Below, one piece after another: positions 958 through 34,807 of a stretch of DNA of 34,807 bases. The translations under genes and the position numbers were made by a program. Numbering within the stretch: position 1 is the stretch's first letter; each line of letters opens with the position of its first letter. This DNA comes from a virus. Lineage: Duplodnaviria > Heunggongvirae > Uroviricota > Caudoviricetes. Under the pieces are notes generated by a model. It was not told the origin of the DNA. It ran no database searches and was given only the letters and a program-made list of their open reading frames with translations. The stretch is taken from IMG/VR virus record IMGVR_UViG_2526164649_000022; one strand, written 5' to 3'.

Positions 958-1059
958 TAATCGCCTGGTAGACTGGCCCCCTGAATCTCCAGACAACCAG
1001 TATCACTTATTTAAGTGATAGTCTTAATACTAGTTTTTAGACTAGTCATTGGAGAACAG

Positions 1060-1425
1060 ATGATTGATGTCTTAGGGCCGGAGAAACGCAGACGGCGTAC
1101 CACACAGGAAAAGATCGCAATTGTTCAGCAGAGCTTTGAACCGGGGATGACGGTCTCCCTCGTTGCCCGGCAACATGGTGTAGCAGCCAGCCAGTTATTT
1201 CTCTGGCGTAAGCAATACCAGGAAGGAAGTCTTACTGCTGTGGCCGCCGGAGAACAGGTTGTTCCTGCCTCTGAACTTGCTGCCGCCATGAAGCAGATTA
1301 AAGAACTCCAGCGCCTGCTCGGCAAGAAAACGATGGAAAATGAACTCCTCAAAGAAGCCGTTGAATATGGACGGGCAAAAAAGTGGATAGCGCACGCGCC
1401 CTTATTGCCCGGGGATGGGGAGTAA
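1060..1425 (+). CDS. insC: IS2 transposase OrfA (InsC)
   Basis: [40 protein letters not shown] matches recalled InsC; the track ORF start at 1015 is an upstream extension. Confidence 0.9.
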
Positions 1426-2288
1426 GCTTAGTCAGCCGTTGTCTCCGGGTGTCGCGTGCGCAGTTGCACGTCATTCTCAGACGAACCGATGACTGGATGG
1501 ATGGCCGCCGCAGTCGTCACACTGATGATACGGATGTGCTTCTCCGTATACACCATGTTATCGGAGAGCTGCCCACGTATGGTTATCGTCGGGTATGGGC
1601 GCTGCTTCGCAGACAGGCAGAACTTGATGGTATGCCTGCGATCAATGCCAAACGTGTTTACCGGATCATGCGCCAGAATGCGCTGTTGCTTGAGCGAAAA
1701 CCTGCTGTACCGCCATCGAAACGGGCACATACAGGCAGAGTAGCCGTGAAAGAAAGCAATCAGCGATGGTGCTCTGACGGGTTCGAGTTCTGCTGTGATA
1801 ACGGAGAGAGACTGCGTGTCACGTTCGCGCTGGACTGCTGTGATCGTGAGGCACTGCACTGGGCGGTGACTACCGGCGGCTTCAACAGTGAAACAGTACA
1901 GGACGTCATGCTGGGAGCGGTGGAACGCCGCTTCGGCAACGATCTTCCGTCGTCTCCAGTGGAGTGGCTGACGGATAATGGTTCATGCTACCGGGCTAAT
2001 GAAACACGCCAGTTCGCCCGGATGTTGGGACTTGAACCGAAGAACACGGCGGTGCGGAGTCCGGAGAGTAACGGAATAGCAGAGAGCTTCGTGAAAACGA
2101 TAAAGCGTGACTACATCAGTATCATGCCCAAACCAGACGGGTTAACGGCAGCAAAGAACCTTGCAGAGGCGTTCGAGCATTATAACGAATGGCATCCGCA
2201 TAGTGCGCTGGGTTATCGCTCGCCACGGGAATATCTGCGGCAGCGGGCTTGTAATGGGTTAAGTGATAACAGATGTCTGGAAATATAG
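1383..2288 (+). CDS. insD: IS2 transposase OrfB (InsD), DDE integrase domain
   Basis: 301-aa ORF overlapping insC in the arrangement typical of IS3-family OrfA/OrfB. Confidence 0.9.
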
Positions 2289-2919
2289 GGGCAAATCCAC
2301 CTGGTCTGAACGCTCTCACCTCGTCCAGTGTGGGCAACAGAGAAAGTTGTTCTTTCATCTCCCGCTGACAGCGATAAATCTCATCGTTGCGCTCAACAAT
2401 GGCCTGTATCATCGCTGTGGCCAGTTCCTCAAGTTCCTGCGTCGTCAGCTGCACCTGCTGATTATCCGCATCACTCCACGTCATATTTGTTTGTGCCGCG
2501 ACAGATTTTGCCAGCATGACTACCGGGGACAGGCGGCCCAGTGAGTCGGGGCCAGCATTCCAGATACGACCGTTCCATTCAAACGTGAACGGCTTCGCCT
2601 CCTGTTCTGTGCGCCATGCTTCAATTTCCTGACGTCTGGCCTCTCTGGCCGCTTCCAGCATTTCTGGTGTCACAGTGAATGGGGCTATCTCACCCCATTT
2701 GCCACTTTGCAGTTCCTGCCAGATTCGCTGACCCGTCGGTGCGACATCATCAGCGGTGGCTGTGTAGGGGACTGCCTGGTCCCTGTCGTCAAAAAAAACG
2801 TCACAGTCTACTGCGCCACTTTCGGTATAACGGGGATTAATGATTTTTTTAATTTCCACGGTGCATTCCTCACGATGTGCGAATAAAAAGCCCGGGCATT
2901 GCGCCAGAGACATGAGCAT
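2122..2919 (-). CDS. Phage tail-module protein (putative second tail-fibre assembly/chaperone-like); phage-derived part is 2300-2919; C-terminus replaced by read-through into IS2
   Basis: Position directly downstream of a tail-fibre gene; removing IS2 and one duplication copy restores ...RAFRPGD followed by TAA. A GTG start at 2859 with a GAGGA Shine-Dalgarno is plausible instead of the ATG at 2919. Confidence 0.5.
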
Positions 2920-8531: not shown

Positions 8532-9591
8532 GTGGCCACCGCCTTTGTTTTTTCGTCTTCGCTTTCATTTCCGGCATGTCCAGTGATTCAGGCGGAACCA
8601 GCGCCAGAACCGTCATCCTCCCCTGTGCGCCATCCGTCCATGTCACCCCGGATATCAGCCAGGTGGTTTTCAGGTTCTGAATGCTGTCGTCGATATCGAC
8701 AAGGCGGTTGGTCTGCCACAGCGGGCCGCTGTCGCCCTGTTCGCGCCAGCCTGCCACCGTGATTTCCGTCGTGCGGGACTCTCCCAGCATCCGGGCTTTG
8801 TACCATTCCCCGCGCATGCTGGCCCCGCCCACGGTCAGGCTGTCTTCATTGACCAGAATGCGCGGGCGGTAACGGTTAATTTCCGGGTCTTCGGTGATGT
8901 ACTGGCGACCGCCCACCATCGGGGCAGGCTGGCTGTCCCACAGTTTGCCACCGGCACTGGTGGTGCCCTTGATGATGTACTGGCTGTTACGCTCCCGCCA
9001 GCTGAAGCGCCCACGGGCGGCGAGGATATTTTTTCCCAGCACCAGTGACACGCCCGCGCGAACGGAAGAGGCGCGGGTGATAATCAGGTTACCCGCGCCG
9101 TCAGACGTCAGCAGAACGCCGCGCTGTTTTGCCAGCCGGTCGAGCAGTTCAAAGCCCGTTTCACCCTGTTCCAGAACGACAGACGCAAATGCCTCCCCGG
9201 TCGGGGTTTCCGTGATGACGGTTATCCCGAACGGGCGGCAGACATCAGCCGCCACCTGTTCAAGCCGCACGCCTTTCCATTTCCCGGACGAATGCACCAC
9301 AGAGCAGTCCACCAGGTCGCCGGTTTTATCGCGCCCCATGACGCGAATCTCCAAGTTTTCAGCGTCATAGCCGGGAATAAAATCATCGATATACCCCGTC
9401 AGCACGGTATCCGCGCCCAGCCTGACCGTGCAGGGTTGCCCCTCACGAATCACGCGCGGTGCCGCCGCTGACCAGCGGGTTGTCACACTGAGTTCAAACT
9501 CACCGGCAATCGCCTTCAGGGAACGGCTGACGGACATTTCCGTCCAGCCTTCCCACAGTTTGCCGTCAACGGTAAGAATCACGGATTCCAT
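8488..9591 (-). CDS. Tail/baseplate hub protein (Mu P, gp44-like)
   Basis: 367-aa ORF between N-like and V-like genes. Confidence 0.6.
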   Translation of the reverse strand: MESVILTVDGKLWEGWTEMSVSRSLKAIAGEFELSVTTRWSAAAPRVIREGQPCTVRLGADTVLTGYIDDFIPGYDAENLEIRVMGRDKTGDLVDCSVVHSSGKWKGVRLEQVAADVCRPFGITVITETPTGEAFASVVLEQGETGFELLDRLAKQRGVLLTSDGAGNLIITRASSVRAGVSLVLGKNILAARGRFSWRERNSQYIIKGTTSAGGKLWDSQPAPMVGGRQYITEDPEINRYRPRILVNEDSLTVGGASMRGEWYKARMLGESRTTEITVAGWREQGDSGPLWQTNRLVDIDDSIQNLKTTWLISGVTWTDGAQGRMTVLALVPPESLDMPEMKAKTKKQRRWPHGIKRNCSPPATDG

Positions 9592-10865
9592 CAGTCGGTG
9601 ATCTCCACAGGTTGCGTCGGCAGGATGAATGACGGATGACGCAGGCGGTTACGCTGCACGATTTCATCCCGTCGGCGTGTGTCACCATGCTCGCGCCATG
9701 CCAGCAATGCGGCAGAGGTGGTTGTGGTCAGCGTCACCTGCCGGGTTTCCGGCAGACGGGCGGCACGCTCGCGGGCATCCGTAATCACGGCCTGCCGTAA
9801 ATCGCGCAGCGTTCGCCACAATGTCCGCTGGTTGTTTTCCACCGCCGCCACCGCCTGCTCATGCAGTTCAGCCGCCAGCGTGTCACCGGCAGATAACGCC
9901 GCATCACGGGTATCGAACGTCATCGAGGCCACGGCACTGGCCTGTCCCAGCAGGGCTCCCAGCACAACCACCTGGCGGAAGTCGTCAATGTTCTTTTGCA
10001 GGCTGTCAGATACCGGCTGATAATCCGGTGACAGCCCGATGGCAAAGCCGGGGTTGCCGTCTGCCACGCTGCCGGGCTTCACGGTGATATCTTCCGGCAG
10101 TGCGCCGGTGGCAATCTGCCTGGCACGTTCTCCGGCCCACTGGTTGCGTAATGTCGTGTAAACCGCCAGTGCTTCGGGTGGTTCCGTCACAAGGCCCGCA
10201 ATATCTTCCACCCGTGCTGACAGCTCACTGACCAGACGCCCCGGTGTGGCAATGAGGGTTCCGGCCATCGCCTTAAAATGCTTCAGCCTGTCCATCCACT
10301 GATTCAGTGCTGCCGGTAACGTGGGCAGGTTAGCCACAAGGTTTTCCATATCGGCCAGAAAACTGTCGGCCATGTCACCCAGCCCGTCGAGTGCGCCGAA
10401 CCAGTCGCCATCGTCAATGGCGGCTTTCACCGCATCAATGCCTGTCAGCACTTCCTGCTGCGTGTTATCCGCCGCAGACGGGAACAGGCGCTCGCCTGCC
10501 TCAAACACTTCAAAGGTGACATACGCAATGCCGTCTTCCTCCGTGCAGAGGCGATGGGTGACCTTGCCAACCTGTACGGTCTGTATCCCGAACCACGGGT
10601 GGACAAGCTCGCCGGGGCCGGGGGTATTGAGCGCATCTAAAAGGGCGTTTAAATCATCCCGGAAGTTTTTACCTGGCAGCTTTGCGTTAATCTGCTGTTG
10701 CCCCGGAACGGCCCCGTTATCATCCGTCCAGGCGGTTTCACGCCGGGGATAAGCACGGGGAATGGCACGACGACCACCGGTGCCCTCCGTATCCACCAGA
10801 AAGAAGGGGACGCCACGAAACGAGGCGTCGCGCAGCCCGTCCCATTTACCGTTGCTCGTTGTCAT
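9591..10865 (-). CDS. DNA circulation protein N-like (Mu gp43-like)
   Basis: 424-aa ORF immediately downstream of the tape measure gene with overlapping start/stop. Confidence 0.6.
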   Translation of the reverse strand: MTTSNGKWDGLRDASFRGVPFFLVDTEGTGGRRAIPRAYPRRETAWTDDNGAVPGQQQINAKLPGKNFRDDLNALLDALNTPGPGELVHPWFGIQTVQVGKVTHRLCTEEDGIAYVTFEVFEAGERLFPSAADNTQQEVLTGIDAVKAAIDDGDWFGALDGLGDMADSFLADMENLVANLPTLPAALNQWMDRLKHFKAMAGTLIATPGRLVSELSARVEDIAGLVTEPPEALAVYTTLRNQWAGERARQIATGALPEDITVKPGSVADGNPGFAIGLSPDYQPVSDSLQKNIDDFRQVVVLGALLGQASAVASMTFDTRDAALSAGDTLAAELHEQAVAAVENNQRTLWRTLRDLRQAVITDARERAARLPETRQVTLTTTTSAALLAWREHGDTRRRDEIVQRNRLRHPSFILPTQPVEITD

Positions 10866-12685: not shown

Positions 12686-12752
12686 GATTTCCGTGCTGAG
12701 ACGGCTACCTGAGGTGTACTGGCAATAGCGGACACTACCATTTGTTCTTTTT

Positions 12753-13571
12753 TTAAGCAGCCATCTGATGATATTTTTCCCTGAAGGCTGCCGGGGAGAT
12801 ATTCCCCAGACGAGAGTGACGACGCTGACGATTGTAGAAAATCTCAATGTATTCCCGTATTACTGAGATGGCTTCATCCCGGTTATTAAAACGATAGTGG
12901 CTCAGGCTCTCATTTTTCAGCGTTCCCCAGAAGCTTTCCATCGGAGCGTTGTCGTAACAGTTACCTTTACGCGACATTGATGTTTTCAGACCAGACTGCT
13001 CCTGTATGACCCGGTAATCGTATGCGCAGTACTGTGAACCTCGATCAGAGTGGTGGATTAGCCCGGCAGGTGGGCGCTGGCTCCTGAGCGCCATAAACAG
13101 GGCTTTACCTGTCAGCTCTTTTGTCATGCGCTCTCCCATGGCGTAGCCGACAATTTCACACGTATAAACATCTTTGATGCCAGCGAGGTACAACCATCCC
13201 TCCTGTGTGGCAACATACGTCAGGTCCGCCACCCAGACCTGATTTGGTGCTGTAGGAGCGAACGTCTGGTTCAGCAGATTTGGCGCAACTGGCAGATTGT
13301 GGTTCGGGTTCGTAGTCGCTCTGAACTTGCGTTTCTGCTTACAGCGTAGCCTTAGCTCCTTACGAAGACGTGCCAGTCGGTCACGACCAACGATGATGCC
13401 ATTCTCTGCCAGCTCCGTCTGGAGCCGCCGGGTTCCATATGTTTCGCGAGTGCGGATATGTGCCACCTTAATCTCCAGTTTTAGCCGCTCATCACTTTGT
13501 TTTCTGTCTGAGGGTTCATGCTGTACCCAGTTGTAATAACCGCTCCTGGATACACCAAATACCTGACACAT
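12753..13571 (-). CDS. IS600 transposase OrfB (DDE integrase domain)
   Basis: 272-aa ORF with IS3-family integrase features, downstream of OrfA. Confidence 0.9.
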   Translation of the reverse strand: MCQVFGVSRSGYYNWVQHEPSDRKQSDERLKLEIKVAHIRTRETYGTRRLQTELAENGIIVGRDRLARLRKELRLRCKQKRKFRATTNPNHNLPVAPNLLNQTFAPTAPNQVWVADLTYVATQEGWLYLAGIKDVYTCEIVGYAMGERMTKELTGKALFMALRSQRPPAGLIHHSDRGSQYCAYDYRVIQEQSGLKTSMSRKGNCYDNAPMESFWGTLKNESLSHYRFNNRDEAISVIREYIEIFYNRQRRHSRLGNISPAAFREKYHQMAA

Positions 13572-13606
13572 CGCTTCAATGGGAAATTGTTGTCGCCATT
13601 GTTCGA

Positions 13607-13909
13607 TTAACGCGTATTTTTCAGCGACTCCTGTGCAAAATACGCTGTTGCTTTTTTTAATATATCTCGCTCAAGGCGAGCTTCATTTAACGCCTTACGC
13701 AGTTGCAGAATTTCAGATTCCAGTTCAGCCACCGTGCGGGAACCAGGAGTACCGAGCCCTTTTCTGGCGGCGGTAACCCATTGTCCTAAAGTGCCTTCAG
13801 GAAGGGATAATCGGGAAGCGCCTTCACTGATCGAAAGTTGATTTTCAAGAACCGTTCTGACAGCTTCGGCTTTGAACTCTTTAGAGTAACGTTGGGTTTT
13901 TCTGCTCAT
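13607..13909 (-). CDS. IS600 transposase OrfA (HTH/leucine zipper)
   Basis: 100-aa ORF MSRKTQRYSKEFKAEAVRTVLENQLSISEGA..., typical IS3-family OrfA. Confidence 0.9.
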   Translation of the reverse strand: MSRKTQRYSKEFKAEAVRTVLENQLSISEGASRLSLPEGTLGQWVTAARKGLGTPGSRTVAELESEILQLRKALNEARLERDILKKATAYFAQESLKNTR

Positions 13910-13965
13910 TATTAGCTCCTTCTGATGCCATTCTATTTCAGGAAGGAGTGTCCGTTAAACTCAGG

Positions 13966-14181
13966 CTACCTCAACCTGTTGCCATACTGTTTCTCCAGTT
14001 GCTTTATCAGGCGGAACAACTGCCGCAGGGGCAGTTGTTCCAGGTACTGAATGCTGAATCGCGAAGACAGGTTAACCAGCAGGTTCATCAGTGCCGCCGC
14101 CAGCGGCATCAGTTCGCCCCCGCGTTGCCACCTCCTCAAGCATGTCATCCAGCACAGCCGCTTTCGTGCTGATAAGCTCAA
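13966..14181 (-). CDS. Frameshift extension frame of the tail assembly chaperone (G-T-like); last two codons and stop lie in the IS600 terminus
   Basis: ORF overlapping the 3' end of the chaperone gene in another frame, with a G5 run (C5 on plus strand, 14117-14121) at the overlap. Confidence 0.45.
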   Translation of the reverse strand: MSLSARKRLCWMTCLRRWQRGGELMPLAAALMNLLVNLSSRFSIQYLEQLPLRQLFRLIKQLEKQYGNRLR

Positions 14182-20315: not shown

Positions 20316-20364
20316 GTCAGTCTCCGTCGTCTGGGGTTACCGACGGTCAGTATGCGGAAGGCAG

Positions 20365-20390
20365 AAAAAAAGCCGGATTTACCGGCTTCA
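20365..20390 (-). terminator. Putative intrinsic terminator between F-like and I-like genes
   Basis: Minus strand reads AAGCCGG-TAAAT-CCGGCTT followed by a T run; identical 26-bp element recurs at 27916-27941. Confidence 0.5.
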
Positions 20391-20529
20391 CTGAAAACGG
20401 GGAAATACCCCCTTCAAAACCCCTTCAAAAACGCCACGGACGCTTCAAAAAAGCCAGGGTGTACATTCATGCCATCAGAATAAAAAACGCGTTTCTGATG
20501 CGTTTCAGGGGCATTTACGGCGGGGAGGG

Positions 20530-25541: not shown

Positions 25542-25845
25542 TAATTTTTTCCTTTAATTCGTTCTCTAATAACAAATCGCTGATGCGGGATACCTGGCGG
25601 ATGGATGGCCCCAGCTCTTTGATTTCACCCCGCAGGTTGCTGATATCCAGTTGCAGGCGGTGAAATTCATTGCGGTCGGGTAGCTGATTCACCAGGCCTT
25701 CCATCACCGACACGCGGGAACGCAGCGAATCAAACTCTTCGCGTTTGACGTAAGTCTTCGCCAGAATCAACTGGAGAAAGTTAATCCCCGTCATCAGCAA
25801 TGCCCACAGAATGGGCCAGTTGGCTCTGATCACTTCCCAGGACAC
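25516..25845 (-). CDS. Membrane-anchored coiled-coil protein (possible spanin-like lysis accessory)
   Basis: 109-aa ORF with N-terminal hydrophobic segment followed by predicted coiled coil. Confidence 0.4.
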   Translation of the reverse strand: MSWEVIRANWPILWALLMTGINFLQLILAKTYVKREEFDSLRSRVSVMEGLVNQLPDRNEFHRLQLDISNLRGEIKELGPSIRQVSRISDLLLENELKEKINGDERDPH

Positions 25846-27860: not shown

Positions 27861-27915
27861 AAAAGCACCTGTGAAGCAGATTTAAACGTGGTCTGCTTCA
27901 TGGTGCCGGAGGCAT

Positions 27916-27941
27916 AAAAAAAGCCGGATTTACCGGCTTCA
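27916..27941 (-). terminator. Putative intrinsic terminator after the Mor-family gene (end of early/middle operon), upstream of endolysin
   Basis: 7-bp stem AAGCCGG/CCGGCTT, 5-nt loop, T7 tract on the minus strand; identical to the element at 20365-20390. Confidence 0.5.
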
Positions 27942-27945
27942 TTGA

Positions 27946-28943: not shown

Positions 28944-29081
28944 TATGTCCCCCCGGATTTAAAATTAATTCGGTGTTGAATAGCTCTTTACTCATTCGAT
29001 GTAGCACATCGAGGGCGGCAACTGCCGCTACTTTATCCTGGCTGGCAATGATTTTTCGTAATTCCTCAATAATCCAGGCTG
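28921..29081 (-). pseudogene. 3' fragment of an early-region gene truncated by IS1
   Basis: The reading frame ending at 28921 continues upstream only into IS1 sequence; the phage-derived part is about 53 codons. Confidence 0.35.
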
Positions 29082-29136
29082 GGTAATGCTGCCAACTTAC
29101 TGATTTAGTGTATGATGGTGATTTTAAGGTGCTTGC

Positions 29137-29412
29137 GTGGCTTCCATTTCCATCAGATGTCCTTCCTGCTCCGCTACTGAAGGCGTGGTGCGTAACGGCA
29201 AAAGCACTGCCGGACATCAGCGCTATCTCTGCTCTCATTGCCGTAAAACATGGCAACTACAGTTCACTTACACCGCCTCTCAGCCCGGTACGCACCAGAA
29301 AATCATTGATATGGCCATGAATGGCGTCGGATGTCGCGCCAGTGCACGCATTATGGGCGTTGGCCTCAACACGGTTTTACGTCACTTAAAAAACTCAGGC
29401 CGCAGTCGGTAA
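29137..29412 (+). CDS. insA: IS1 InsA
   Basis: 91-aa [42 protein letters not shown]... matches recalled InsA. Confidence 0.9.
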
Positions 29413-29834
29413 CCTCGCGCATACAACCGGGCAGTGATGTGATTGTCTGCGCTGAAATGGACGAACATTGGGGCTACGTCGGTGCTAAATCACGTCAGCG
29501 CTGGCTGTTTTACGCGTATGACAGGATACGGAGGACGGTTGTGGCGCACGTCTTCGGTGAACGCACTCTGGCCACACTGGAGCGTCTTCTGAGCCTGCTG
29601 TCGGCCTTTGAGGTCGTGGTATGGATGACGGATGGCTGGCCGCTGTATGAATCACGCCTGAAGGGAAAGCTGCACGTTATCAGCAAGCGTTACACTCAGC
29701 GCATTGAGCGACATAATCTGAATCTGAGACAACATCTGGCAAGGCTGGGACGGAAGTCACTGTCGTTCTCAAAATCGGTGGAGCTGCATGACAAGGTCAT
29801 CGGGCATTATCTGAACATAAAACACTATCAGTAA
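29331..29834 (+). CDS. insB: IS1 InsB reading frame (expressed as InsAB' by -1 frameshift)
   Basis: ORF overlapping the insA 3' end and ending ...[15 protein letters not shown], as in IS1. Confidence 0.85.
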
Positions 29835-29880
29835 GTTGGAGTCATTACCCGGATTTTGACGTTCATTGTCAGCGTTCCTT

Positions 29881-30419: not shown

Positions 30420-31370
30420 CTACCAGTTCAGTAACCTGGGGTTGCTGTAAGCCTCCTTAAAAGCCGCTTTAATGTGACTTTTATTCAGGGATGTGCCTGC
30501 ACCTTTTGCCGCCAGCCACGCATGATTCAGTGTGTGAGTTAATACACGCAATTCCCCGGGCTTTTCGGCTACCCTCATCAGCAGGTCCAGCTCATCTTCC
30601 TGTGTTACTCCCCATGCTTTGGCTACAGCCATCACATCGGTCTTTTTTACTTTGCGCAGTTGTTTTGTCATGGCAAAACGGCTGAACAGACGGGCCAGTT
30701 CATCAGTCCCACGACGGGTGGCATCCGCCATCTGTTTCGGGTTGCCAATTAAAACCATCCCCACGCCAGTGGCATCCTGAATGGCGCGTAATTGCTCCAG
30801 ACCATCCACACTTAAGTGATCAGCTTCATCAATAATCAGAAGGGGGTTAACACGGCCACTGGTTTCTTTACCACCACCCAGTTTTCTGCGAATGGCGCGG
30901 GTTATATTCCCCTTATTTCTTCCCGGATTATTAATTTCCAGCGCATATGCTATTTCAAGGAGGCATTCCGTTACGCTCGAATGTGCCGGAGCAAGAGTCA
31001 CCATCCAGGCATTAGCTGTCCTGCGACAATATTCCCGGGCAGCAAAGGTTTTTCCGACACCCGGTACGCCAACAACGACACTGATAATCCCGAGTGAGCG
31101 CACTGTTTTAAACAGCTCATGCAAATCACAAAATGTCTGGGTCTTCACAACACCAGGGGTACCTGACAAGTTCTGTCCCTTCTGCCAGACCTGATACCAT
31201 TTCTGTAATTTGTCATGCATACCTTCGACATTACCGTTGTACTCTCCTTTACGCAGAGCCGAGAGTGTTGCCGGAGACATTCCGGCTTCATCAGCAATAT
31301 CTTCCTGAGACTTGTCGCCCTCGTTAATCAAAGCGTTAATAGTGTTGAAAACATCATCAATATCAGTCAT
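30420..31370 (-). CDS. B: Mu B-like AAA+ ATPase (transposition target-DNA activator)
   Basis: 316-aa ORF with Walker A GVPGVGKT, immediately downstream of the transposase gene. Confidence 0.85.
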   Translation of the reverse strand: MTDIDDVFNTINALINEGDKSQEDIADEAGMSPATLSALRKGEYNGNVEGMHDKLQKWYQVWQKGQNLSGTPGVVKTQTFCDLHELFKTVRSLGIISVVVGVPGVGKTFAAREYCRRTANAWMVTLAPAHSSVTECLLEIAYALEINNPGRNKGNITRAIRRKLGGGKETSGRVNPLLIIDEADHLSVDGLEQLRAIQDATGVGMVLIGNPKQMADATRRGTDELARLFSRFAMTKQLRKVKKTDVMAVAKAWGVTQEDELDLLMRVAEKPGELRVLTHTLNHAWLAAKGAGTSLNKSHIKAAFKEAYSNPRLLNW

Positions 31371-31445: not shown

Positions 31446-33273
31446 TCAGGCCAGCGGATCATCTTCTTCCTGCATGGCAAAAAGTTTTTGCATCCCCAGC
31501 CGGAAATCGCGTTCAAATTCTTCGTCATGCTCTTCTTCATATTCCGGTTGCTGAACTGCCACCACATTACCAACCGGGCGATAAACATTACTCAGCCAGG
31601 GTTCAGCCTGTTTGTGTTCCAGAATCTGAATACCTTCATCTTCAGCATCACGAATTTTTTCCTCAGCGCGTTTGCGCATTCCTTTAATACGCTGCTGTTG
31701 TTTGTGATATTCAGCACTGACAGCAAAGGCTGCGCGTTTATTGCCGTTCCATATCGCCTCACAGATAAAGCTGCCGTCCTTGCGACGTACCGTAATTCGC
31801 TCGGCGTCATGAATGTCATAACTGATAAGCACTTTGCGACCGTGTTCGTCACGCAACTCCGGCGCGTAGTAAATATTGTTCAGCCACTGAATTTCGCAGC
31901 GTCTTACCGGTCGTTCCACCATTGGGCGGAACATGTCGCGCAGCTCAAGATCACTCAGCCACTCAATTTCGGTGTCTTCTTCTGCCAGGCGTTTTTTCTG
32001 AACTCTGTCGGGCTGTAATGCCGTCCGTTCGGTTTCATCGGCAGCTCAGAATGCGGGCGGTTGTTGTACCATTCCACGCCTTCACGAATAGCCTCAATAA
32101 GCTCCGCCCACGATGGCAGCTCGCGCATTGCCGCTTTCTGGCGGTCGTTCAGAGGCTTGTCCTGTTGCAGGGCGTTAAACGCTGAACGCAGATCACGGTT
32201 AAGTACACGCAACGATTCCCGGTCAGCACCCTTGCCAAAATAGGTGCGATACCTCCTGGCTATACGCATCGGCAGTGTCCGGTTCAGGCGTTCAATAATG
32301 CCGCGTCCCTGTGGATTACCGGCAATACCGGTAGGGTGTTTAATCCCCAGGCGTGGCAGAATACCCACGACCTCTTTGTCCAGCATGTCAGCCGTTTCAC
32401 CGGAACCGTTATCCGAGTAATACAGGAACGGTTTTCCGTGGTTGCGAATGCCGTGCTGTATCGCACCGGCAACGGCGAACACGTTTTCGGCAAGGTCAAG
32501 ACTCCAGCCAACAACAAACCGTGTTCCACCATCGATCACAAACGTGACTTCCGGTGAGAATGGACGCCCGTGGATCGGATGCGCACATTTCAGCTTCATA
32601 CCGTGACCGTCACCAATCCAGACATAATTCACCGGCATAGCTGTCCAGTCGCGGCGGGTGAATCCTTCAAGCTGACGGTATTCACTGCCGGTAACGCGCC
32701 CTTTTTGTTTCACCACTTCCGGCAGTTTTTTCATGGCATACCGGACAACATCATAGGAAGGCATCACCTCCAGCATGTACGGTTCGTCCGCATGGCGACG
32801 CTGCCATTCTGCGACAAAATCCTCGTAGGCTTCTGACATGGGTCTGCCGTTCACCTGGCGATACTGCGCCAGAAATTCAGGCAGCCAGCTGATTTCTTCC
32901 GGTTTTATTTCGTCGCGTTTTCCCGGTGCCAGTAACAGCAGCCGTTCGGCGGCGTTCTGCGACTGGTTGTATTTCAGAACCCACTGGTAAAGTGGATCGC
33001 GGCTGATAGTACGATTAGCGCCACGTTTTGCATTGGCGTTAACTGCGGCCTGTTGCAGGCGCTCCGGCAGCTCACCTTTACGGGCTTTTTCAACAAGAAA
33101 GTTAATGGCTTTCAGTCGCCCGAGGTTACCGGCGCTTTCCAGCTTCAGCACTTCCACCACCAGCGCAGCTCTTGCTTCAGATACCCAGCGCTGGTTTTCG
33201 GTCAGCGCATTCAGGCGTTCTTCCATCAGTTGTGGAGAACCGCGATATGCTTCGATTGCCTGGACAGCGTCAG
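31446..33273 (-). pseudogene. A: Mu A-like DDE transposase, central and C-terminal parts, frameshifted in a T6 run (31992-31997) and severed from its N-terminus by IS600
   Basis: ORFs 31955-33322 and 31446-31934 align to consecutive MuA regions in different frames (...VWIGDGHG... catalytic core; ...NNIYY...DGSFICEA domain III). Confidence 0.8.
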
Positions 33274-33337
33274 TGAGGTAGCCTGAGTTTAACGGACACT
33301 CCTTCCTGAAATAGAATGGCATCAGAAGGAGCTAATA

Positions 33338-33640
33338 ATGAGCAGAAAAACCCAACGTTACTCTAAAGAGTTCAAAGCCGAAGCTGTCAGAACGGTTCTT
33401 GAAAATCAACTTTCGATCAGTGAAGGCGCTTCCCGATTATTCCTTCCTGAAGGCACTTTAGGACAATGGGTTACCGCCGCCAGAAAAGGGCTCGGTACTC
33501 CTGGTTCCCGCACGGTGGCTGAACTGGAATCTGAAATTCTGCAACTGCGTAAGGCGTTAAATGAAGCTCGCCTTGAGCGAGATATATTAAAAAAAGCAAC
33601 AGCGTATTTTGCACAGGAGTCGCTGAAAAATACGCGTTAA
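33338..33640 (+). CDS. IS600 OrfA (copy 2; one Ser-to-Phe difference from copy 1)
   Basis: 100-aa ORF identical to copy 1 except SRLSLPEG to SRLFLPEG. Confidence 0.85.
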   Translation: MSRKTQRYSKEFKAEAVRTVLENQLSISEGASRLFLPEGTLGQWVTAARKGLGTPGSRTVAELESEILQLRKALNEARLERDILKKATAYFAQESLKNTR

Positions 33641-33675
33641 TCGAACAATGGCGACAACAATTTCCCATTGAAGCG

Positions 33676-34493
33676 ATGTGTCAGGTATTTGGTGTATCCA
33701 GGAGCGGTTATTACAACTGGGTACAGCATGAACCCTCAGACAGAAAACAAAGTGATGAGCGGCTAAAACTGGAGATTAAGGTGGCACATATCCGCACTCG
33801 CGAAACATATGGAACCCGGCGGCTCCAGACGGAGCTGGCAGAGAATGGCATCATCGTTGGTCGTGACCGACTGGCACGTCTTCGTAAGGAGCTAAGGCTA
33901 CGCTGTAAGCAGAAACGCAAGTTCAGAGCGACTACGAACCCGAACCACAATCTGCCAGTTGCGCCAAATCTGCTGAACCAGACGTTCGCTCCTACAGCAC
34001 CAAATCAGGTCTGGGTGGCGGACCTGACGTATGTTGCCACACAGGAGGGATGGTTGTACCTCGCTGGCATCAAAGATGTTTATACGTGCGAAATTGTCGG
34101 CTACGCCATGGGAGAGCGCATGACAAAAGAGCTGACAGGTAAAGCCCTGTTTATGGCGCTCAGGAGCCAGCGCCACCTGCCGGGCTAATCCACCACTCTG
34201 ATCGAGGTTCACAGTACTGCGCATACGATTACCGGGTCATACAGGAGCAGTCTGGTCTGAAAACATCAATGTCGCGTAAAGGTAACTGTTACGACAACGC
34301 TCCGATGGAAAGCTTCTGGGGAACGCTGAAAAATGAGAGCCTGAGCCACTATCGTTTTAATAACCGGGATGAAGCCATCTCAGTAATACGGGAATACATT
34401 GAGATTTTCTACAATCGTCAGCGTCGTCACTCTCGTCTGGGGAATATCTCCCCGGCAGCCTTCAGGGAAAAATATCATCAGATGGCTGCTTAA
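33676..34493 (+). pseudogene. IS600 OrfB (copy 2), frameshifted by a 1-bp deletion
   Basis: Copy 1 reads AGCGCCCACCTGCC, copy 2 AGCGCCACCTGCC (about 34171-34176); ORF splits into 33676-34188 and 34269-34493. Confidence 0.8.
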
Positions 34494-34536
34494 AAAAAGA
34501 ACAAATGGTAGTATCCGCTATTGCCAGTACACCTCA

Positions 34537-34807
34537 CAGGATTGCGTGTTTTTCTGGTAACAGCTTTCACTTCAGAAACATTGTTCTCTGTAGCCACCAG
34601 CTGTTCCACATAGCGTTCACGCAGTGCCTTTCGTGTTATTTCAGGCAGACAATCAATGTGGTACTCAATGGCTTTTGTGCCTTCCCGACGGCGACTAACG
34701 TCACCAAGATCACGAGAAAAACGCTGTAACGCCTGTCGGATGCCTTTTGTGGTGGCTGGCATTCCTGGTACGCCGAGCAGGTCATTTACGGTAACGTACG
34801 ACTGCAT
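34537..34807 (-). pseudogene. A: N-terminal 90 codons of the Mu A-like transposase gene, separated from the rest by IS600 copy 2
   Basis: ...GTKAIEYHIDCLPEITRKALRERY resembles the recalled MuA N-terminus (...GGKAIEYNANSLPVEAKAAL...); in frame with the 31955-33273 segment once IS600 and one duplication copy are removed; ATG at 34805-34807. Confidence 0.75.

Follow-up and report, generated by a model that had tools for sequence, protein, structure and literature searches.

An IS600 insertion and a probable homopolymer under-call in the MuA-family transposase gene of a Shigella flexneri prophage

The DNA analysed here, IMG/VR virus record IMGVR_UViG_2526164649_000022, is a stretch of 34,807 nucleotides (nt; hereafter the window) that ends in the transposase gene of a Mu-like prophage. 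The window matches contig AKMV01000036.1 (GCA_000268085.1) with 100% identity over the 7362 nt compared, and GCA_000268085.1 is the draft assembly of Shigella flexneri 2850-71 (PMC6397287). Aligned to the intact prophage of Escherichia coli VL40, it runs from the mom stop codon to the start of the transposase gene. The minus strand at its right end carries the transposition module of the prophage, with the transposase gene starting at the window's final base, 34807. The region would correspond to the transposition module at the left end of a Mu-like prophage lodged within a ubiD-like gene of S. flexneri 2850-71. The transposase gene is represented by three open reading frames (ORFs), of 105 codons (34807–34490), 455 codons (33322–31955) and 162 codons (31934–31446). 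A sequence-only reading of the window had ascribed these breaks to two independent lesions, an insertion of the insertion sequence (IS) IS600 and a one-base frameshift in a run of six T (T6). On re-reading the sequence, both features are present where that reading had placed them (Table 1). The comparisons reported below point to a gene of 698 codons that would have been inactivated once, by IS600 after codon 90.

We first describe the gene as it reads once IS600 is removed and one A is restored, a repaired protein of 698 amino acids (aa). HTH_Tnp_Mu_1 (PF02316) matches residues 10–84 at 29.4 bits (cutoff 23.3), and Mu-transpos_C (PF09299, MuA subdomain II-beta) matches residues 535–595 at 66.5 bits (cutoff 21.7). 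A Pfam rve (integrase core) match at residues 331–410 is weak, at 20.4 bits and below its cutoff of 32.6. BLASTP aligned residues 308–679 with MuA at 25% identity (E=1e-10) and set D311, D377 and E417 opposite MuA D269, D336 and E392, with the motifs WIGDG, YYSDNG and IIERLN. A sequence search of the PDB returned weak matches to retroviral integrase cores and a marginal match to the MuA structure 4FCY. The neighbourhood, judged from called genes and annotations across the window and related loci, is of the Mu type, comprising a repressor, ner, A, a MuB-like ATPase, kil, gam, mor, head and tail genes, com and mom. By its domains, catalytic residues and neighbourhood, the gene reads as a member of the MuA family that is distant from MuA itself. 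Its reading frame is not uninterrupted, being broken by IS600 after codon 90 and by an apparent frameshift at codon 517. As it stands in the window, the gene is, by this reading of its sequence, a MuA-family pseudogene, and its protein would be non-functional.

The interrupting element, IS600 copy 2, is 99.7% identical over its 1263 nt to RefSeq elements described as 'IS3-like element IS600 family transposase', begins with TGAGG and ends with CCTCA. It is flanked on both sides by CAG. At the corresponding empty site, each of the four intact E. coli orthologues shows one CTG on the coding strand, within AAT CCT GAC (N89 P90 D91), and excising the element together with one CAG yields a continuous frame that reads ...TRKTRNP across the junction into DAVQAIEAY.... 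The insertion point falls just behind the I-alpha-like winged helix. That the MuA-like gene is split after codon 90, with a CAG duplication and the frame kept, had been proposed from the window itself, and holds in every detail. The 5' fragment matches E. coli VL40 with 100% identity across 271 nt; its ORF continues for 15 codons inside IS600 and stops at 34490. By exact look-up in a collection of about 15 billion proteins, which served for all exact-sequence look-ups here, the 105-aa product formed by the N-terminus reading into IS600 occurs in four assemblies. Three complete S. flexneri genomes, UGYT01000001, CP024470 and UGYQ01000001, carry the same insertion. Judged by these alignments, the IS600 insertion is a genuine lesion, and the one secure lesion of the gene. 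It would cut the N-terminal DNA-binding winged helix off from the rest of the transposase, and the catalytic part would be distanced from the early promoter by 1.26 kilobases (kb) of antisense IS.

Copy 2 itself shows signs of decay. It resembles IS600, a member of the IS3 family, in its sequence, its TG...CA ends, its 3-base-pair target duplication and its orfA of 100 codons, and departs from it in being 1263 nt long with a split orfB. Relative to IS600 copy 1 of the same window (1264 nt), it has three substitutions and, near 34172, one C fewer in a CCC run; the deletion leaves no intact orfB, only pieces of 170 and 74 codons. The same split is common to three other genomes (L016–L018), so the one-base CCC deletion is probably real. 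Copy 2 is likely non-autonomous and probably unable to make its own transposase.

The second break has a different standing. At 31991–31998 the plus strand reads G TTTTTT C, so that the coding strand has a run of six A (A6). The reading frame shifts within codon 517; the 0-frame stops 12 codons on, at 31955, and the downstream 162-codon ORF lies in the -1 frame. We aligned an IS-free reconstruction of the gene with intact orthologues (2085–2097 nt; 695–698 codons in a single ORF), to which it is 99.9% (VL40), 99.8% (FDAARGOS_943) and about 95% (STEC388 and RM9088) identical. The sole length difference from these four orthologues is one A, with AGA AAA AAA CGC there and AGA AAA AAC GCC in the window. 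Adding that A gives a 698-aa protein equal to the VL40 protein apart from R119W, in agreement with the earlier proposal that one gene runs on through both downstream ORFs. The exact repaired protein is present in 595 contigs under the name Shigella Mu transposase. R119W was considered as a third lesion and rejected because W119, as those contigs show, is the common Shigella allele.

Codon 517 lies opposite MuA residue ~471 in the BLASTP alignment, ahead of the Mu-transpos_C match. In MuA, subdomain II-alpha spans about 258–490, II-beta about 491–574 and domain III about 575–663. Taking these limits, the break would fall near the end of subdomain II-alpha, with II-beta and domain III both lost. 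The frameshift had been placed between the catalytic core and domain III; the alignment moves it to the boundary of II-alpha and II-beta.

Genomes of the same lineage bear on how this break is to be read. UGYT01000001, CP024470 and UGYQ01000001 all combine the IS600 insertion with seven A (A7) and an uninterrupted 625-codon remainder, such that the seventh T, which restores the frame, is found in every independent assembly of the IS600-bearing lineage. By exact look-up, the 625-aa product expected from IS600 with A7, which starts in the IS600 end and reaches the gene's own stop, occurs in three assemblies other than AKMV01, and the 423-aa product of the A6 allele in the IS600-bearing lineage occurs in a single contig, AKMV01000036.1. 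The 528-aa product expected of an IS-free gene with A6 is absent from the protein collection by the same look-up. Within this lineage the variant is present in one assembly only, and the independent assemblies agree with one another. The frameshift is most likely not biological, and would instead be a homopolymer under-call in the draft assembly. With three genomes that share the IS600 insertion having A7, and the T6 form confined among them to AKMV01000036.1, the claim of two independent lesions is not supported; the earlier interpretation is partly supported, with one secure lesion and not two. The first codons of the 625-codon ORF lie within the IS600 end. We considered expression of an N-terminally truncated transposase from IS600 and found no support for it: a promoter scan detected, on the minus strand, nothing resembling an outward-facing promoter.

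The change at codon 517 is one of a set. Against its closest relatives, AKMV01000036.1 has five private one-base indels in ~37 kb and ~3 substitutions, and all five indels are contractions of A6 or A7 runs. Over 20.3 kb aligned with CP024470 there are 2 substitutions, both in chromosomal flank, and 4 one-base gaps, two of A6 to A5 and two of A7 to A6. The prophage part contains every one of these gaps and not one substitution. A separate 20.5 kb aligned with UGYT01 outside IS600 contains 1 substitution and 1 gap (A7 to A6). Where the sequence matches E. coli VL40 closely, the alignment has three one-base gaps, each of them an A7 to A6 change, at the run in the transposase gene and at the two further T6 runs listed in Table 1. 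Runs of A or T of at least six make up 0.6% of the window. One of the contractions lengthens the gpP-like baseplate protein to 367 aa, from the 356 aa that it has in nine other genomes; two further private contractions, at positions 9640 and 9898 of locus L015, lie just outside the window and affect ner and the spacer between c and ner. Because the changes are private to one assembly, are all contractions, and outnumber the substitutions, they argue for under-calling rather than mutation; the pattern is the one that under-called homopolymers are expected to leave in a draft. Pyrosequencing was presumably the method behind the Shigella drafts that this centre produced in those years.

Several points weigh against an under-call, which is deduced from a comparison of assemblies. 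On the phage coding strand the contractions affect 5 of ~24 A runs and 0 of ~13 T runs, an A-only bias that sequencing error does not predict, in numbers too small for significance. The ~11 kb of chromosomal flank shows no contraction and contains six runs of length 6 and zero of length 7. In a sister lineage described below, the same run has truly changed from A7 to A6, marking it as a naturally mutable site, such that a private true mutation in 2850-71 is possible. These points feed the strongest alternative, in which the frameshift is a real second mutation, an A7 to A6 slippage private to 2850-71 that followed IS600 in a gene no longer under selection. The order of events would fit, with IS600 and A7 in three genomes and IS600 and A6 in one; the same contraction did happen in the sister lineage; and in an already dead gene the change would be unopposed. 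It would, however, require five independent A-run contractions per ~37 kb in one strain against ~3 substitutions. In E. coli mutation-accumulation experiments, substitutions outnumber homopolymer indels many-fold, with or without mismatch repair. Moreover, the leftmost 11.4 kb of the prophage show zero contractions, all 5 of 5 changes run in the same direction, and two of them alter ner and the C-terminus of gpP, which are intact in every relative. We regard a real second mutation as unlikely. The reading that IS600 is the single knockout, the frameshift an under-call, and the prophage defective through ordinary Shigella IS expansion appears to us the likely one, taken as a whole.

The sister lineage (related loci L005 and L007–L014) also has this prophage in the ubiD-like site, with a transposase gene that is free of IS600. 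Because the site is common to both lineages, the prophage insertion would be ancestral to both. In the sister copies an IS3-family element stands in place of everything after the transposase gene. In 27 contigs of this lineage, too, the 162-aa ORF has been called, and the A6 form is present in the IS600-free copy in six Logan assemblies, which are separate sequencing runs, and in one further draft. The A7 to A6 change at this run occurs in nature and is genuine in the sister lineage. Two other sister assemblies have A7 and, 10 nt downstream, a CCAGG to CTAGG change that creates an amber codon. CCWGG is the Dcm site, at which deamination of 5-methylcytosine makes a mutational hotspot and gives amber codons. 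The sister transposase genes are otherwise almost unchanged.

These losses raise the alternative that transposase inactivation has been recurrently selected in S. flexneri, so that the lesions would represent an adaptive 'grounding' of the prophage and not neutral decay. At least three independent knock-outs at one ancestral ubiD-like site (IS600, the A7 to A6 change and the CTAGG amber codon), together with hardly any further differences in the transposase gene, speak for such selection. Both point lesions, however, sit at mutational hotspots, one in the longest A run of the gene and the other at a Dcm CCWGG site; IS600 is a highly active element in Shigella; all that follows the transposase gene was already gone from the sister copies; and the intact protein, in 595 contigs, is far commoner. 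Adaptive grounding as the cause of the lesions seems to us quite unlikely, and we think it very improbable that repeated transposase loss in S. flexneri reflects selection, whether for an immobilised prophage or for a truncated protein lacking II-beta and domain III. The independent knock-outs of the sister lineage are mildly useful for testing whether transposable prophages are preferentially grounded via their transposase.

Functional recoding of the A6 run, in which a -1 ribosomal slip or polymerase slippage would supply low levels of full-length transposase as in IS3-family transposases, has next to no probability: a slippery heptamer A AAA AAC does lie in the correct phase (0-frame AG A AAA AAC), and a -1 slip there enters the 162-codon frame and recreates the orthologue sequence except for K517N, but the two-frame layout is not conserved, all orthologues examined (95–99.9% identity) and same-lineage genomes having A7 and a single ORF, the exact in-frame protein occurs in those 595 contigs, and IS600 splits the gene upstream regardless, so that we rejected programmed frameshifting, no stimulatory element having been sought or seen.

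With the homopolymer under-call as the preferred reading of the A6 run, a caution follows for annotation. A pseudogene call that turns on a single base of a homopolymer in an old draft assembly should not be counted as an evolutionary lesion, and any homopolymer-based pseudogene call in the AKMV01 assembly is suspect.

Table 1. Coordinates of the transposase gene, its lesions and other features of the window.
Feature	Position	Strand	Description
Transposase 5' fragment, codons 1–90	34540..34807	-	Winged-helix DNA-binding domain (I-alpha equivalent)
CAG target-site duplication, right copy	34537..34539	.	Single copy at the empty site of orthologues
IS600 copy 2	33274..34536	+ (orfA; antisense to transposase)	1263 nt; inverted copy of 12710–13973, by repeat finding
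CAG target-site duplication, left copy	33271..33273	.	Flank of IS600 copy 2
Transposase remainder, codons 91–698	31446..33273	-	DDE triad, Mu-transpos_C barrel, acidic C-terminal tail
T6 run (A6 on coding strand)	31992..31997	.	Seven bases in relatives; probable assembly under-call
MuB-like AAA+ ATPase gene	30420..31370	-	Directly downstream of transposase gene; intact, 316 codons; Pfam Phage-MuB_C
IS1	29082..29849	+	End found at 29849; start placed from the 768-nt length
Second T6 run, seven bases in relatives	25545..25550	.	3' end of DUF2730 gene; private contraction
IS600 copy 1	12710..13973	-	1264 nt; ACC target duplication on both sides; codon 3–4 of tape-measure-like tail gene
Third T6 run, seven bases in relatives	8548..8553	.	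3' end of gpP-like baseplate gene; private contraction
IS2-like element	970..2299	+	1330 nt; CCTGG 5-base-pair duplication; DUF4376 gene, tail-fibre region

Elsewhere in the window, other insertions have damaged the prophage (Table 1). IS600 copy 1 severs the start codon of the tape-measure-like tail gene, and this insertion is also present in UGYT01. The IS2-like element interrupts the DUF4376 gene of the tail-fibre region, where the called genes of relatives are 301 and 121 aa (L025); by its end sequences and these called genes it is a putative IS2. Beside IS1, the prophage lacks ~3.2 kb of early region, gam among it, that E. coli VL40 and UGYT01 (L016) have. Since UGYT01 has the same IS1 and yet keeps the region, the deletion would be later than the IS1 insertion. 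About 135 nt at 28947–29081 gave no alignment to VL40. By these comparisons, the prophage is defective through two IS600 copies, IS1 with its 3.2 kb deletion, and IS2.

This inventory bears on two further statements of the sequence-only reading. Its remark that the structural genes remain open is only partly true, failing for the tape-measure-like gene with IS600 copy 1 and for the DUF4376 gene of the tail-fibre region with the IS2-like element. Its view of an immobilised prophage under relaxed selection agrees with the prophage being defective; the frameshift is the wrong basis for it, and the four IS and the 3.2 kb deletion are a better one. IS-driven decay of Shigella genomes and prophages is already well known, and the IS600 case is nothing new in kind.

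A minor observation concerns copy 1. In UGYT01 the IS600 in the tail gene shows the orfB split, and copy 1 in the AKMV01 draft is intact; the difference may come from repeat collapse during assembly.

Set beside known systems, the gene shares with MuA of phage Mu (NC_000929, Mup03) a winged-helix domain, a DDE core, a Mu-transpos_C barrel and an acidic C-terminal tail, and the prophage shares with Mu the gene order c, ner, A, B, kil through com and mom. MuA differs in its length, 663 aa against 698 here, in its sequence, at the low identity given above for residues 308–679, and in that the gene here is interrupted by IS600. Far closer are the intact orthologous prophages of E. coli VL40 and FDAARGOS_943 and of many Shigella genomes, with 99.8–99.9% nt identity across the transposase gene and an unchanged gene order over the whole prophage. 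Unlike the prophage of the window, the intact orthologous prophages are free of IS600, IS1 and IS2, have seven A at all three runs, and occupy other chromosomal sites, as expected of a transposing phage.

Among isolated phages in the phage collection searched, the closest are Yersinia phages vB_YpM_5 and vB_YpM_6 (MT374853, MT374854), which match 81% of the transposase region at ~90% nt identity. Both have been isolated as Mu-like phages (PMC10434027). In contrast to the prophage here, they are free infective phages with uninterrupted genomes, in which the transposase is annotated as hypothetical only.

SfMu is a transposable phage of S. flexneri, a close relative of Mu and D108 with cryptic copies reported in several serotypes (PMC4406740). 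The prophage described here resembles it in host species and in being a transposable phage. Nine phage records matched at the DNA level, and SfMu was not one of them. We rejected identity with SfMu, given that SfMu is close to Mu and D108 and the prophage here, 25% identical to MuA, belongs to a different lineage.

The site of the prophage is a ubiD-like decarboxylase gene, whose UbiD_N part lies upstream of the repressor (L015, 7814–8764) and whose UbiD_C part follows mom (L021, 18646–19143). Within the window, two 42-nt direct repeats that are 90% alike lie at 20353–20394 and 27904–27945; each contains a hairpin-like GCCGGATTTACCGGC behind an A run, and they look like shared terminator-type elements between operons. 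Finally, rpoS in UGYQ01000001 (L018, about 6300) has an in-frame 18-nt insertion, apparently a tandem duplication, that gives a protein of 336 rather than 330 aa.

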